64,000 nucleotides of DNA, from positions 4,160,001 to 4,224,000 of the forward strand of contig OY762428.1 of the NCBI GenBank assembly GCA_963665665.1, read 5' to 3'. Within the stretch, counting starts at the first letter, position 1. Each line of letters begins with the position of its first letter. Under the pieces are notes generated by a model. That model worked only from the letters and a program-made list of their open reading frames with translations, was not told the origin of the DNA and did no database searches. This document shows, piece by piece, positions 180 to 35,721 of this stretch. Source of the stretch: Candidatus Kapaibacterium sp. GTDB taxonomy: Bacteria; Bacteroidota; Ignavibacteria; Kapaibacteriales; UBA2268. A program made the position numbers and the translations under genes.

Positions 180-1118
180 TTATTGGCCTGCCAATTTTTC
201 CCTGATACCTTTGAAATAATCGGCTGTTATTTTCAATCCATCGGCAAAATCAACATCAGGAGACCAATTGAATTCATTCTTCAGCCTGGCATAAGAAATA
301 ACCGACCTGCGTTGTTCACCGTCCTTTGCAGGCCCATGAATTTCTTTGCATCCCGAACCTAAAGATTCATTCAGAATGTTAAATATGAAGTTTACGTCAG
401 TTTCAATTGCAGTACCAACATTATATGGGCCGGAAGCGTTTTTGTTAAGAGCCGCAACATTAGCTTTTACCACGTCGCCAACGAAAACATAGTCCCTGGT
501 ATTTTTGCCATCCCCGTTTATCACGGGCTGTTCGCCGTCAAGCATTTTGTTGGCGAATATGGCTACAACTCCGGCTTCACCTCTATGGTTCTGCCGAGGC
601 CCATAAACATTTCCGTACCTTAGAGCAACAAATTTTATTCCGTAAACATACTGATAGTAGTAAAGATATTTTTCATTTACAAGCTTGGCAATGCCATAAG
701 GCGAGCACGGGTTTGTCGGATGATTTTCATCAGCAGGAAAATATTCCTGATCTCCGTAAATTGCTCCTCCGGATGATGCAACGATGATTTTCTTTACTCC
801 GTGTTTCTTAGCAGCTTCATACAGGTTCAGGCTGCCAAGAACATTGGTTTCCGCATCCAGCCTTGGGTCGTCAACCGATATTCTTACATCAATCTGAGCT
901 GCCTGGTGATTAATAATATCAAACTTTTCTTCCTTAAAAATTTGGTCTATTGAAATATCATTAATGTCTTTTTGAATAAATTTTGCTTTCGGGTTTAGAT
1001 TTTCAAGCCTGCCTGTTGACAGATTGTCAATAATCACAACATCATGGCCGGCTTTAATATAAGCGTCGGTAATATGAGAACCGATAAATCCTGCTCCGCC
1101 TGTAACTAAAATTTTCAT
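180..1118 (-). CDS. galE: NAD-dependent epimerase/dehydratase, UDP-glucose 4-epimerase-like (extended SDR)
   Basis: Starts MKILVTGGAGFIGS (Rossmann GxxGxxG); YxxxK motif (PYGIAK), LRYGNVYGPRQ, RDYVFVGDV. Start moved to ATG at 1118. Confidence 0.85.
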   Translation of the reverse strand: MKILVTGGAGFIGSHITDAYIKAGHDVVIIDNLSTGRLENLNPKAKFIQKDINDISIDQIFKEEKFDIINHQAAQIDVRISVDDPRLDAETNVLGSLNLYEAAKKHGVKKIIVASSGGAIYGDQEYFPADENHPTNPCSPYGIAKLVNEKYLYYYQYVYGIKFVALRYGNVYGPRQNHRGEAGVVAIFANKMLDGEQPVINGDGKNTRDYVFVGDVVKANVAALNKNASGPYNVGTAIETDVNFIFNILNESLGSGCKEIHGPAKDGEQRRSVISYARLKNEFNWSPDVDFADGLKITADYFKGIREKLAGQ

Positions 1119-7328: not shown

Positions 7329-8993
7329 CTATTTGGTTTTCTCTTTGGATTTTTTTCTGTCCAGAACTGCTTTGATAAAGTCAATAAACAGAGGATGGCC
7401 GGTAACGGCTCTGGATTTTAGTTCAGGATGGAATTGCGTGCCAAGAAACCACGGATGATCTGCAAGCTCTGCAATTTCAACAAGTGAGCCGTCCGGAGAT
7501 GTTCCGCTGAAAACCATACCTTTTTCTTCCAGAACCGGACGGAATTTGTTGTTTACTTCGTACCGGTGGCGATGCCTTTCTGATATATCATTTTCTTTAT
7601 AAGCAGCTATAGCTTTTGTGCCATCTGCCAGTTTACAGGGATAGGCACCGAGCCTCATCGTACCGCCCTTGTCTTTTACATTTTTCTGTTCTTCCATCAG
7701 GTCGATAACATTGTTATCTGTTTCTTCGAATTCAGCCGAGTGAGCTCCGTCCAAACCGCATACATGACGCGAGAATTCAATGATAGCACACTGAAGCCCA
7801 AGGCAGATTCCGAAGAAAGGCATGTTGTTTTCACGGACGTATTTAATTGCCTTTATTTTGCCTTCAATGCCCCTGGGGCCAAAGCCCGGACCAACAAGAA
7901 TTCCGTCAACATCCGAAAGCATTTCTTCAACATTTTCAGCAGTGATTTGCTCGGAATCAATCATGATAACATTCACTTTGGCATTATTAACTGATCCTGC
8001 ATGGGAAAACGCTTCAAGAATAGATTTATATGAATCCCTGTATTGTGTATATTTACCAACAAGGCCTACATTAACTTCTTTTCGGGGATTTTTTATTCTG
8101 TTTACAAATTTTGTCCAGGTTTTTAGGTCTCTTTCACCTGCTTCCATACCAAGTTTATTAAGAATGATCTCGTCCAGGTTGCTTTTGGCATACATTAACG
8201 GTACTTCGTAGATAGTGTTTTCCACATCTAAGCCCGCAATAACAGATTCAAGGTCAACATTGCAGAAAAGTGCAATTTTCTGCCTAAGATCCTTACTGAG
8301 CTTATGCTCTGACCGGCAAAGAAGTATATCGGGCCTGATTCCGTATTCCATTAGAAGCTTTACCGAGTGCTGCGTAGGTTTGGTTTTTAATTCACCGGCA
8401 CCCTGAATGAACGGAACATAGGTCAGGTGAACGCTAAGGGAATTCTGATGCCCTAATTCGATTGAAAGCTGCCTTTGAGCCTCGAAAAATGGCAAGGACT
8501 CAATATCTCCGACAGTTCCGCCAATTTCAACTAAAATAAAATCATATTTTCCGTCATAAACTGTCAGGCGTTTTTTCAGCTCATCAGTAATATGCGGGAT
8601 TACCTGTACTGTTTTACCAAGATAATGGCCGCGTCTTTCTTTCGAGATAACTTCAAAGTAAACCTGCCCGGCTGTGGCATTGTTATCTTTGGACAGCGAC
8701 TGTGCAATAAACCTTTCGTAATGTCCAAGGTCAAGGTCTGTTTCCGAGCCGTCATCAGTTACATATACTTCCCCGTGCTGGAAGGGGTTCATTGTGCCCG
8801 GATCAACATTTATATAGGGGTCGAATTTCATTATTGTTACCGAGTAGCCCCTTTGTTTTAACAAAAGGCCGATCGATGCCGAAGCAATTCCCTTGCCGAG
8901 AGAGGACAACACCCCGCCGGTAATGAATAGATACTTTGATTTTCCTGAAAAAGTCGGTTTTTTTGGCATATACTCGCTCATTTGATGAATCAT
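7329..8993 (-). CDS. pyrG: CTP synthase (start may be at 8981 or 8969)
   Basis: [54 protein letters not shown]. Confidence 0.98.
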
Positions 8994-9070
8994 TATAGTT
9001 ATTATTTTTCCGTTTTTAGTATTCTCAAAATTTAATAAATTTTTTGAAAATTGTTCAAATGTAACGAGAA

Positions 9071-31793: not shown

Positions 31794-33164
31794 ATGAAAA
31801 CACAAATCGAACCATTCAAGATAAAATCAGTAGAGGCAATACCGATAACAACAGTTGAAGACAGAGAAAAATACTTAGAAGAAGCATTCTACAATCCTTT
31901 TTATCTTAAATCAGATTACATTACTATCGACCTTCTGACAGATAGCGGAACAACTGCCATGAGTTCCAAACAGTGGGCACAGGTTATGGACGGCGACGAA
32001 GCTTATGCCGGTTCAAGGTCTTATTACAAATTTGAAAAGATAGTGAAAGAGATTACCGGATTTAAACATATTATCCCCACACATCAGGGCAGGGCAGCCG
32101 AAAGAATACTCTTTAATATCCTTGATGTTGAAGGAAAAACTGTTCCAAACAATACTCACTTCGACACTACTCGCGGAAACCTGGAATTCAACAAAGCTAA
32201 TGCTGTTGACCTTCTGAATGAAATTGGCAAGAAACCCGAAGTTGAAGCTCCTTTCAAAGGCAACATTGACCTTGACAAATTAAAAGCTACTATTGAAGAA
32301 GTCGGTGCAGAGAATGTGCCGGTATGTTTCCTGACTGTTACTAATAACAGCGGCGGAGGACAGCCCGTTTCCATGCAGAATATCCGCGAAACAAAAGAAT
32401 TACTCAAACAATATAATATACCATTATTCCTGGACTGCTGCCGTTTTGCAGAAAACGCCTACTTCATTAAGCAGCGCGAAGACGGATACCAGGACAAAAC
32501 TATTAAAGAAATTGCACAGGAAATGTTCTCCTATGCAGACGGCTGCACAATGAGCGCAAAAAAAGACGGTATGAGTAACACAGGCGGCTTTATCGGGCTG
32601 AATGATGAAGACCTTGCAGTAAAAGCTAAAACAGTCCTTATCGTTACCGAAGGTTTCATTACTTATGGTGGCCTGGCAAGACGCGACCTTGAAGCACTCG
32701 CTGTAGGTTTTGAAGAAGTATTGGATGAAAACTACCTGGCATACAGAACCGGACAGGTTAAATATCTTGGCGATATGCTTACAGAAGCTGGTGTTCCGAT
32801 TATACGCCCGACAGGCGGCCACGGAGTTTATATAGATGCTAAAGCATTCGCCCCGCACATTGCACCAAGGAATTATCCCGGACAGTCTGTTACACTGGAA
32901 ATATACAGAGTAGCCGGTATCAGGACTGTTGAAATTGGTTCGGTTATGTTTGGAAAAGAATTAGATAACGGAGAATTTGTTCCGGCAGCTATGGAACTTG
33001 TAAGGCTTGCAATTCCACGCAGGGTTTACACAAAGAGCCATATTGAATATATTGCAGAAGCAATTATTGAAGTCTATAAAAACAGAGACAAACTCCGCGG
33101 ACTGGAAATTGAATGGCAGCCGGAATTCCTGCGCCACTTCACAGCCAAATTCAAATACGTTTAA
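31794..33164 (+). CDS. tnaA: tryptophanase (beta-eliminating lyase family)
   Basis: EPFKIKSVE, DLLTDSGT, PTHQGRAAE, PLP lysine in MSAKKDG, RLAIPRRVYT; LRHFTA (His, tryptophanase-type) rather than LRFFTA (tyrosine phenol-lyase-type). Confidence 0.88.
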   Translation: MKTQIEPFKIKSVEAIPITTVEDREKYLEEAFYNPFYLKSDYITIDLLTDSGTTAMSSKQWAQVMDGDEAYAGSRSYYKFEKIVKEITGFKHIIPTHQGRAAERILFNILDVEGKTVPNNTHFDTTRGNLEFNKANAVDLLNEIGKKPEVEAPFKGNIDLDKLKATIEEVGAENVPVCFLTVTNNSGGGQPVSMQNIRETKELLKQYNIPLFLDCCRFAENAYFIKQREDGYQDKTIKEIAQEMFSYADGCTMSAKKDGMSNTGGFIGLNDEDLAVKAKTVLIVTEGFITYGGLARRDLEALAVGFEEVLDENYLAYRTGQVKYLGDMLTEAGVPIIRPTGGHGVYIDAKAFAPHIAPRNYPGQSVTLEIYRVAGIRTVEIGSVMFGKELDNGEFVPAAMELVRLAIPRRVYTKSHIEYIAEAIIEVYKNRDKLRGLEIEWQPEFLRHFTAKFKYV

Positions 33165-33285: not shown

Positions 33286-35370
33286 TTAAAAATTTTCATA
33301 CATCTGCTTCAAATCATTTACTTTTTTGGTTTTGCCGGTGTTTACGATAAGTATCCTGCTGTCCGATGGTATCTGATCTTTCATTTGAAGCATTAATGCC
33401 AGCCCGGCCAGCCCGGATGGTTCGCATTTAATATCCTGCGATCGGGCAACTTCTATTGCCTGCTTCACGATTTTTTCATCAACATAATAAATATCAGTAA
33501 GCGAACCTACACATGCATATTCGTTTTTCAACTCCCGGATATATTTCCTGAATGAATTTATGGAAGGCAGAAAATTCGAGAAGAGTTTATCCATCAAAGT
33601 ATCCGGTTGATTTGAAGATGCCCCGAAGTAATTGCATTTTTTGATTGTTTCAATATCAGAGAAAAATCTTGGATCGTGCTTTGAAACGTAGGAATAAAAA
33701 TATTCTATTTTAACGATATTTAAAATATTTATAAACAAATCACCAGTTCCGAAAGGAATAAAGCAAAATTCGGGTTTTTCGCGTAATATCTCGTAGCTCA
33801 TCCAGTCGTAATAATTGTCATGGGTAGGGTCAAGCACTTCGCGGTAAGTAATATCAATACCGTCCTTATTATCAGTTAAGGTTTTTATATCTTCTGATGA
33901 CAGCAGTTTTTCTGAAAGATCGCATTCATATAACTCACATCCGATATCAGAGATCGAATTCTTGATACCGGAATTCAGGTGGTGATCAACAAGAACTTTC
34001 AGACGAGTCGGTATACTGAACAGGTTGAACAGATGCTGAATAGCTATGGCAGCGCTGCCGGATGAAATTATCGACATTTGTGGCAGCGAATCGTTATCTT
34101 TGTATTTTAAAGCATCAATAAGAGATTTGTACTTGATAACAACCTCCCAGGCCAGCCTGTCCTTATGTGTACCGGTCGGGTTGGAACTCTCATCTTTCAG
34201 CCAGACGTTGCTGAATCCCGGAACATCAATCCGATAAGTATTCGATGCAGGAAATTTCGGCCTGTAAAATGGTTCGGGCGGGAATTCCGGTTTTTTCGGA
34301 TCATTGTTTGAAGGTATTTTTATCCGTTTGTAAGTGGTTTCAAGCCTGACATTAATATTTCGCAGATTCCTTTTGCCCGGCAACAACTTCTCCAAAGATT
34401 CCATGTTTTTGATCTTTGACAGAAAAATTTCATACAAAACGCTTGCCCTGCTGTTTCGAATAAGGTCAAGCACACCGTGGAGCTCTTCAATGATTTCCTT
34501 TATCTCGTCAAGTTCTTTTCTAAGCCTTTGGTAAAATACTTTCTCTTTTTTATCACCAACTATCAGTTTGTGATTTTCTTCAAGTTTCTCAATCCTCAGT
34601 TTCCAATATTTCAGCAGCTCGGAGCGGCCAAGTGAATCAAAAATATTAAAATCCCCGGAATAGCTGTCCTTTAAAAGAATATGAAAGGTATGTGCAAGAT
34701 ATAAATCCAGTTTATTGTTAGTGAAGTGGATCAGATCTTTTACACAGCTCTCATTTTGCAGATAGTCCCGGCTGATAAGGCTGAAGATATAAGTATTCTC
34801 GCCAAGGCCGGAATATAAATCGTCTATTGAACCCTTGCTGTAAGCCTGGGTATTACGGGATTCAGTTTCAACTTCCAGAAGAAAATTTGTTTCCAGGAAT
34901 TCCTTTATTCGTTCTGCCTCGGTCATGTTGTTCATGGTCGAGGAAATAATTATTTTAATTTTCCTTTCCTTATTGTCCCCGGTTTCCTGTTTCTTGCTGA
35001 TATTTCTCAGAAATTCGAACCTTGTTTTTCCATAGGCATAAAGGTAGCATATCTCGATATTATATTCCTGGAATCTTGAGTTGTCGCTATCCTTTTTTGT
35101 GTAAAAGAAATCCTTGAAGAAAGTATTACCCGGCACCAGGTCGGAATCGAACTGGCCTGCAATTGAAATTTTCAGGCCTTTACCGCTTTTCAGCTCATTA
35201 AGCCTCGCGTTAATAAAGTCCCTGAGTTCAGAATAATTTGGAAGGTGAGAGTTAAATTTTTTAAGTCCTCCTTCCTTCAGATATAAATTCTTCATATCAT
35301 CTCTCAGCCTGTCCATTTCGGGCTTATCTAATTGTATCCATCCGCTTTTCAGAATAATATTTTCAGCCAT
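33286..35370 (-). CDS. multidomain protein: putative HTH-like N-terminus + TIR-like domain + PLP-dependent fold-type II (threonine synthase-like PALP) domain
   Basis: TIR-like KIIISS...YIFSLISRDYLQNESCVKDL...ELLKYWK; PALP VWLKDESSNPTGTHKDR, SSGSA, IPFGTGD, CEPSGLAGLA, IVNTG. Likely start ATG 35370. Confidence 0.75.
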   Translation of the reverse strand: MAENIILKSGWIQLDKPEMDRLRDDMKNLYLKEGGLKKFNSHLPNYSELRDFINARLNELKSGKGLKISIAGQFDSDLVPGNTFFKDFFYTKKDSDNSRFQEYNIEICYLYAYGKTRFEFLRNISKKQETGDNKERKIKIIISSTMNNMTEAERIKEFLETNFLLEVETESRNTQAYSKGSIDDLYSGLGENTYIFSLISRDYLQNESCVKDLIHFTNNKLDLYLAHTFHILLKDSYSGDFNIFDSLGRSELLKYWKLRIEKLEENHKLIVGDKKEKVFYQRLRKELDEIKEIIEELHGVLDLIRNSRASVLYEIFLSKIKNMESLEKLLPGKRNLRNINVRLETTYKRIKIPSNNDPKKPEFPPEPFYRPKFPASNTYRIDVPGFSNVWLKDESSNPTGTHKDRLAWEVVIKYKSLIDALKYKDNDSLPQMSIISSGSAAIAIQHLFNLFSIPTRLKVLVDHHLNSGIKNSISDIGCELYECDLSEKLLSSEDIKTLTDNKDGIDITYREVLDPTHDNYYDWMSYEILREKPEFCFIPFGTGDLFINILNIVKIEYFYSYVSKHDPRFFSDIETIKKCNYFGASSNQPDTLMDKLFSNFLPSINSFRKYIRELKNEYACVGSLTDIYYVDEKIVKQAIEVARSQDIKCEPSGLAGLALMLQMKDQIPSDSRILIVNTGKTKKVNDLKQMYENF

Positions 35371-35721
35371 TACGTCACCGGAAATTAATAATATTTTCAA
35401 TAGATAAAGATACGAATATTTTGATAATTAGTTCATATCAGCAAATGAAAATTTAATCCCACCAGTATTATTCAACAGAGATCAACTACAGGTCACAATA
35501 AGCAACTGCTAATCATAATATTATTTTCAATATTTTTCTGAAATTCCGGATATTTAAATATTTTGAAGTAATTTAATTATTCCGGAAAGACGGCCCGGGA
35601 ATAAGGAAAACAAAATATTATGATAAATCCCATATTTTATTGTACATATAAAGGTATAATTTTTTCAATACAAAAAATCTTCTTAATTTTAAATGATTTA
35701 TAATTCTACTTATGGTCTGTT

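Follow-up and report, generated by a model that had tools for sequence, protein, structure and literature searches.

TIR domains are NAD+-cleaving or scaffolding modules of immunity, and fold-type-II pyridoxal phosphate (PLP) enzymes are amino-acid synthases and lyases. Here we analyzed a gene of Candidatus Kapaibacterium sp. whose product carries both in a single polypeptide chain. The gene lies on the reverse strand of a stretch of 64,000 nucleotides of contig OY762428.1 (GenBank assembly GCA_963665665.1, positions 4,160,001 to 4,224,000), and this whole stretch is called the window below. From its N- to its C-terminus, the protein comprises an N-terminal domain (N-domain), a TIR-family domain, a two-helix hairpin and a fold-type-II PLP module. 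Databases annotate this architecture automatically, and its domains belong to known kinds. The literature search brought up no publication that deals with TIR-PALP proteins or with this clade of PLP enzymes, and no characterized protein of this architecture was found, in agreement with the initial annotation, which had been made by a model from the sequence. The reading that we tentatively favor, at somewhat less than an even chance, is that of an accessory PLP enzyme that would be scaffolded or regulated by its TIR domain, and not that of an NAD+ hydrolase (NADase).

Several known systems share parts of this design. TIR_2-PALP proteins of about 550 amino acids (aa), one of them deposited as 'pyridoxal-phosphate dependent enzyme [Flavivirga aquimarina]', have the same TIR clade, the hairpin and the PEFPP-prefixed PLP module, but they lack the N-domain, pass the Pfam TIR_2 model and retain the canonical Glu in the three sequences aligned; six clusters of this form carried both Pfam TIR_2 and PALP. 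The TIR_2 proteins of conflict systems (EAD-TIR, TIR-TPR, TIR-LRR-Roc-COR and TIR-caspase) possess a homologous TIR domain with a C-terminal helical extension, and their box-1-like, RD/RN box-2-like and S..Y...C..EL-like motifs stand in register with those of our protein, which differs from them by Asp in place of the catalytic Glu and by its PLP partner. The partner domains found among the TIR relatives were EAD1/EAD7, TPR, LRR/Roc-COR and caspase, and PALP occurred in 4 of the 76 relatives scanned. Threonine synthase and O-acetylserine sulfhydrylase share the PALP fold, the lysine motif NP(T/G)G(S/T)xKDR and the EPSG...TG motifs, whereas the similarity is marginal (E 0.003-0.05 against PDB), His-Lys is read where these enzymes read Phe/Val-Lys, and an extra Pro-rich prefix of 35 residues is present. 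In addition, SSGSAA replaces the SGN loop of the threonine/cysteine synthase class. The stand-alone 'PLP-dependent lyase/thiolase' of about 340 aa shows all catalytic positions as in our protein, but has no N-terminal domains and forms a clade of its own. Finally, MocR regulators consist of a GntR-type winged helix-turn-helix (HTH) and a fold-type-I PLP domain. The likeness of MocR and GabR to our protein lies in the PLP-fold domain placed behind an N-terminal module; in contrast, the PLP domain studied here is of fold type II (PALP), and no HTH family is detectable.

The architecture is conserved. A total of 258 relatives were found. Sixty-eight clusters, 690-721 aa long, match the protein over 97% or more of its length with an identity of 46-71%; the source names of these full-length clusters were Bacteroidota, Ignavibacteria, Kapabacteria and 'FCB group' metagenome-assembled genomes. 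Within residues 1-345, 42 positions are invariant among 25 sequences of 38-61% identity. The full-length relatives and the invariant positions of the front half ruled out a chance fusion, and the initial view of one open reading frame (ORF) with at least three modules was borne out. The strings quoted in that annotation (PGNTFFKDFF, FQEYNIEICYLYAYGKTRFEF, IIISS, LISRDYLQNESCVKDL, IFDSLGRSELLKYWK, NPTGTHKDR, SSGSA and PFGTGD) all occur in the translation, and the codons that it gave for Asp212 and Lys403 are right. A scan of species-representative genomes detected 354 stretches encoding relatives. Among 401 sampled genomes of the phylum, the full-length form was present in the source genome alone and the PLP part alone in one other (G348), and none of six genomes of the same family carried the full-length form. 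The distribution of the full-length form is patchy.

The middle domain is a true TIR-family domain. The AlphaFold model of residues 1-345, built from an alignment of 71 sequences, reached a predicted local distance difference test (pLDDT) of 83 and was compared with 48,161 chains by the VIA-align (VIA) fold search. The best rows over residues ~135-335 were the Cat1 TIR (Z 10.0, root-mean-square deviation 3.6, 135 residues aligned), PdTIR (Z 9.6) and AtTIR (Z 9.5), and further TIR rows were obtained for RPS4 (Z 9.1) and SIGIRR (Z 8.9). The Foldseek matches of the same model were weak (E >= 0.006), yet many TIRs were among those listed. The assignment was settled by the sequence evidence from profile matches and hhalign. 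The profile of residues 1-345 matched 534 proteins at E<=1e-3 among 1.8 billion representatives, most of them over profile positions ~137-326 only, and a Pfam scan of distant matches found TIR_2 in 74 of 76 and TIR in 58 of 76. Additionally, hhalign aligned the middle domain with a TIR_2 set at 99.6% (E 2.4e-24, 129 columns), in a register that places LISRDYLQNESCVKDL on VISDKYLKSENCMFEL and Asp212 opposite the Glu of CMFEL. The TIR-like middle domain with Asp at the Glu position, as proposed at the outset, was supported. The Pfam TIR models (TIR_2 PF13676 and TIR PF01582) gave no match in this protein at E<=1 for the whole sequence or at E<=10 for residues 1-345, and 43 of 71 family members matched TIR_2 at E<=10 (best 9.5e-5). 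The profile of the TIR domain retrieved a marginal TIRAP row alone from the PDB sequences (E 2.1), and a Pfam TIR_2 search of the source genome yielded no match at E<=0.01. Since the distant TIR_2 matches align over positions ~137-326, the hairpin belongs to the unit common with canonical TIR_2 relatives; in the AlphaFold2 model it extends the helix that starts at residue 246, the long helices being 246-271 and 277-306. A two-copy complex prediction of residues 133-345 scored 0.00, which counts for neither side.

The position of the canonical catalytic Glu is variable. In the 71 sequences, the column of residue 212 holds Glu (39), Gly (12), Asp (9), Asn (4), His (4), Ser (2) and Gln (1). Because Gly occupies this column in a sixth of the family, the Glu would not be catalytically essential here, and because the canonical Glu is not conserved in the lineage of our protein, the TIR domain is most likely not an NADase. 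The hallmark of TIR NADases, a catalytic Glu that is conserved within helix alpha-C, is not shown by this family. The surroundings of the column are constrained: Q205, N206, E207 and D235 are each found in 70 of 71 sequences, N242, G248 and W256 in all 71, and the nearly invariant polar residues comprise S143, T145, N147, N148, E151, R172, D202, Q205, N206, E207, D235, N242 and W256. These residues suggest that a conserved polar surface persists near what we take to be the NAD+-binding place of TIR domains. Among 12 aligned proteins of 338-371 aa that consist of N-domain, TIR and hairpin without the PLP module, 9 keep the canonical Glu. Strict conservation of the Glu is lost exactly in the lineage that gained the N-domain. 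An attenuated TIR that serves as an assembly module, as put forward in the initial annotation, would fit the variable Glu column.

In the C-terminal module, the PALP core at residues 386-679 is preceded by a conserved prefix, IPSNNDPxKPEFPPxPFYxPxFPAS. Pfam PALP (PF00291) was the sole family matched in the whole protein (E 1.7e-16; 60.9 bits vs a cut-off of 35), and the match spans profile positions 16-295 of 295. The module-only profile retrieved threonine synthase 6cgq (E 0.003) and O-acetylserine sulfhydrylase 1ve1 (E 0.008) from PDB, in alignments that include both the lysine motif and the EPSG...TG motifs near the C-terminus. Lys403 aligns with the lysine of FKDR/VKDR in these two enzymes, and EPSG (650-653) aligns with EPGS of threonine synthase. 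In all 25 full-length relatives, K403, S437-G438 (SSGSAA), G541-T542-G543, E650-P651-S652-G653 and N677-T678-G679 are invariant, and the same positions are retained by the stand-alone PLP forms; Lys403 is also invariant in the alignments of forms with other front ends. We take G541-T542-G543 and EPSG to correspond to the Gly-rich phosphate loop and the pyridine-N Ser. Given the PALP match, the PDB alignments and the invariant motifs, the PLP domain looks like a working, very divergent fold-type-II enzyme, and the initial assignment of a fold-type-II domain with its Schiff-base Lys was upheld. The module belongs to a clade whose kinship with threonine synthase and cysteine synthase is only distant.

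The threonine synthase of the threonine pathway was ruled out as its identity. The NCBIfam models of threonine and cysteine synthases scored far under their cut-offs (best thrC, 26.7 bits vs 266), and homoserine dehydrogenase was not found in the source genome (5.46 Mb, 99.5% complete). This genome holds two PALP-family genes, the one studied here and one canonical gene outside the window at positions 3690016-3690867, and it seems to be without the usual genes of threonine synthase, tryptophan synthase beta and threonine dehydratase. Since there are two PALP genes only and no homoserine dehydrogenase, the organism may have several amino-acid auxotrophies.

The PLP module recurs behind several front ends, which are collected in Table 1, and the prefix (I/V)PSxN(D/N)PxxPEFPP is found across the forms. 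The stand-alone form looks like a large enzyme family: at E<=1e-10 and a length of <=380 aa it comprised 1481 clusters, whose source names were often Patescibacteria, Pacearchaeota, Nanoarchaeota and Micrarchaeia (Candidate Phyla Radiation, CPR, and DPANN). When our module was aligned with eight stand-alone sequences, the mean column identity was about 75%. We built a quick maximum likelihood tree of 84 PLP-module sequences (LG+G4), with Shimodaira-Hasegawa-like approximate likelihood ratio (SH-aLRT) support only. It sampled every third sequence of the ~700-aa and stand-alone forms, every fourth 509-aa form, all 7 ~550-aa forms, our module, the G348 protein of locus L002 and one outgroup. The family of our protein formed one clade (24 of 24, support 82) and was sister to the 509-aa forms with a joint support of 99. 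The stand-alone clade contained 38 of 40 sampled forms (support 99), and 6 of the 7 ~550-aa forms made up another clade (support 99) outside that of our protein's family. The outgroup branch is very long, and the deep order and the root of this tree are not settled.

Several observations were made on the shorter forms. The N-terminal domain of the 509-aa form has no detectable homology to the N-domain of our protein (hhalign, 4% probability), and many 509-aa forms read HKAR, not HKDR, following the lysine. They were present in 23 of 61 genomes of one genus and in 1 of 121 genomes sampled from its family, and one copy was broken by TAA (genome G535). Some 509-aa loci lie after ileS-lspA and before genes for GAF and MutS-domain-V proteins, and others lie between a sigma/TonB-like pair and an amino-acid permease; examples of this form are L042:9440-10978 and L069:9461-10990. 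In the 460-aa protein of G348, the PLP module is 41% identical to ours, PALP is the only Pfam family at E<=0.001, and the N-terminus of 115 residues resembles by eye an XRE-type HTH.

The N-domain is a confidently folded orphan. Modeled alone by AlphaFold2, it reached a pLDDT of 88.6 and a predicted template modeling score of 0.83, and the model contains five helices along with short strands. Its residues invariant in 25 sequences include G10, W11, N45, Y46, P80, G81, N104, C108, Y109 and R117, and its net charge is about +2 (K/R minus D/E count). Pfam found no family in the domain itself and no HTH family at E<=10 across 71 members; Foldseek returned nothing from PDB at E<=0.001, the profile search against PDB gave one chance row and nothing usable, every score in the ESM Atlas was <0.9, and no paralogue was found in the source genome. 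The VIA search gave a best Z of 4.5 and no chain at Z>=5. Of the 50 rows listed, about 33 were lambda-repressor-like (XRE, POU and CUT; Z 2.9-3.9, 56-75 residues aligned), where, according to the VIA guidance, Z under 5 may mean merely a common helix arrangement. Helices 102-113 and 117-129, with a turn at Gly114 and the invariant Arg117, might be seen as a putative HTH. The HTH idea for this domain is a weak lead and no finding, and the HTH-like N-terminus of the initial annotation was therefore not supported.

The coordinates of the features are summarized in Table 1. Two in-frame starts are possible for the gene, ATG at 35370 and the upstream TTG at 35400, which have a common stop. Because the homologues begin at the former (M..EI.LKSGWI), the product is taken as 694 aa from ATG 35370, and TTG 35400 is probably not the true start. 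The GC content of the gene is similar to that of its surroundings, and an Rfam search of the gene and its flanks gave noise only (E 0.25-0.99, far under the gathering scores).

Table 1. Features of the gene and its product (positions in the window unless a locus is named), and the forms in which the PLP module occurs.
Feature	Residues or length	Coordinates	Strand	Basis or remark
Whole gene	694 codons + stop (33286-33288)	33286..35370	-	ORF list, translation, homologue starts
Orphan alpha/beta N-domain	1-132	34975..35370	-	AlphaFold2 model, no family match
TIR-family domain	about 136-265	34576..34965	-	Fold match, profile search, hhalign
Strands of TIR domain	bA 139-144, bB 166-171, bC 193-199, bD 228-232		-	AlphaFold model
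Glu207 of Q-N-E motif, 5 residues N-terminal of Asp212	207	34750..34752	-	Alignment
Asp212, at canonical TIR catalytic Glu (CxxEL)	212	34735..34737	-	hhalign register
Helical hairpin	about 266-335	34366..34575	-	AlphaFold2 secondary structure, TIR_2 alignment span
PLP module	346-694	33289..34335	-	Pfam PALP; prefix + core recur stand-alone
Lys403, putative Schiff-base lysine (NPTGTHKDR)	403	34162..34164	-	Conservation + alignment
PLP module behind N-domain + TIR + hairpin	~700 aa			Form of the protein studied here
PLP module behind TIR_2 + hairpin only	~550 aa (545-561)			Canonical Glu in the three aligned
PLP module behind 185-aa domain without family match	~509 aa			Sequence relatives
PLP module behind 115-residue N-terminus	460 aa	L002:1411-2793		G348
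PLP module alone, prefix included	~340 aa			52-54% identical to the module studied here

The gene neighborhoods were compared by clustering the ORFs of 82 loci, 29 of them full-length. There was no universal neighbor among the 29 full-length loci, and some blocks recur in close relatives only; the neighbors sampled at these loci included cytochromes, MgtE, DnaJ, an Lrp/AsnC regulator, peptidases and glycosyltransferases. The context in the window is ordinary, with argS, GH92, a BNR/T9SS protein, a beta-eliminating lyase (convergent), a porin-like gene (divergent), CotH, TPR and M14. The lyase gene, of the tryptophanase/tyrosine phenol-lyase type (31794-33164, plus strand; Pfam E 2.6e-78), is 121 bases off. 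A conserved link to it was rejected, with no neighbor in the other 81 loci clustering with this tnaA-like gene. At a single usable locus (L084, 5699-13209), a 342-aa protein with N-domain, TIR and hairpin and without the PLP module (8001-9029) is located among genes for an MqsR-like toxin, an MqsA/Panacea antitoxin, an LRAT/NlpC-like protein, a 157-aa protein, JAB-ThiF (E1-like), multiubiquitin, DUF6791 and a second ThiF, and these surroundings look like a defense island. The neighbors of the 29 full-length loci were also scanned with PADLOC, using 106 clusters (one protein each) from 169 neighbors within four genes and skipping 5 proteins >1000 aa. The results showed matches to 36 families, including Cas6, Cmr1, Csm3, SspH, RtcR and ZorB-like ones, and each of the 25 listed was matched by one or two members; these matches were too sparse for any call of enrichment of defense neighbors. 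No relatives were found in the viral-contig, plasmid and phage collections.

The simplest account of these data is a PLP working end with a TIR control module, because both halves are constrained and each occurs alone, the Glu is no longer strictly kept in this lineage, the distribution is patchy and there is no partner gene. According to this favored reading, the C-terminal fold-type-II PLP module would be the catalytic end, and the TIR domain most likely would have a regulatory, self-assembling or ligand-binding role, by which it gates or scaffolds that enzyme without hydrolyzing NAD+. The orphan N-domain would be an input or adaptor, and N-domain, TIR and hairpin would together form a unit for control or assembly that was taken over from conflict-type proteins. 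The data establish the domain identities, their conservation and modularity, the scattered occurrence and the missing conserved neighbors; three further points are inferences, namely the non-catalytic nature of the TIR, its control over the PLP module, and a role of the protein in stress or conflict rather than in core metabolism. Several findings weigh against this account. Receiver domains came within 1 Z unit of the TIR matches in the VIA search (Z 9.3 and 8.2), the Glu is kept in more than half of the family members, Asp212 may conceivably still act as an NADase residue, PADLOC-DB 2.0 matched no family in our protein at E<=1, and most neighborhoods look housekeeping. Because of these neighborhoods and the missing PADLOC match, a conflict role rests mainly on the usual company of the TIR clade and on the one L084 locus. 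A bolder version, which we regard as doubtful, would be a new class of TIR-coupled PLP effectors, in which the N-domain would sense a trigger and the TIR-hairpin module would either assemble or, via the pocket of the conserved Q-N-E, N242 and W256, take up a nucleotide-derived ligand, and would so turn the PLP enzyme on. This enzyme would then either destroy an amino acid that is essential or yield a product derived from an amino acid and possibly conjugated to a nucleotide.

Three other explanations assign the halves differently. A plain metabolic enzyme whose N-terminal half is inert or a structural relic of an old fusion would agree with the housekeeping-like neighborhoods, with the very widespread and highly conserved stand-alone enzyme and with the decayed catalytic Glu of the TIR. 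A relic, however, would lose its fixed polar residues, while the front half retains its invariant positions and the near-fixed polar residues of the TIR, and the absence of the gene from close relatives is unusual for core metabolism; we give this explanation a rather low probability. It is quite unlikely that the roles are reversed, with the TIR as the immune or signaling effector and the PLP domain sensing an amino-acid-like metabolite that would lead to TIR assembly and to NAD+ cleavage or signal synthesis. The conflict-type relatives of the TIR clade, the canonical Glu of the aligned ~550-aa forms, the patchy distribution and the PLP-less L084 protein among toxin-antitoxin and ubiquitin-like conjugation genes speak for such an effector. 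Against it, the Glu is replaced in 32 of 71 members (by Gly in 12) and all PLP catalytic residues are invariant, so that a working PLP enzyme fits better than a PLP sensor; there is also no PADLOC match, no conserved partner gene and no viral, phage or plasmid copy. The metabolite-triggered TIR signaling suggested in the initial annotation is accordingly weakened by the variable column. That annotation had also offered a fold-type-II analogue of MocR, a one-component regulator in which the N-domain would be a divergent HTH, the PLP domain a MocR/GabR-like sensor and the TIR an oligomerizing module. The lambda-repressor-like rows and the last two helices of the N-domain point in this direction, but all these Z values are below 5 and may reflect a common helix arrangement alone, no HTH emerged from Pfam, Foldseek or the PDB profile search, the domain has little net charge, the PLP module forms a complete enzyme, which occurs alone too, and there is no conserved divergent target gene. 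As the N-domain shows no HTH family, there is no detectable DNA-binding domain on which a MocR-like reading could be based, and we consider it very improbable.

The conserved covalent TIR-PLP link suggests either a new regulation of PLP enzymes or a new immune output via amino-acid chemistry. Three families are exposed by this analysis: a stand-alone PLP enzyme with CPR/DPANN source names, the orphan N-domain, and a TIR subfamily that relaxed its catalytic Glu while fixing the nearby Q-N-E motif. If the protein were indeed an effector in which the TIR turns on the PLP enzyme, the stand-alone enzyme in >1000 CPR/DPANN clusters would represent an unrecognized and widespread activity.

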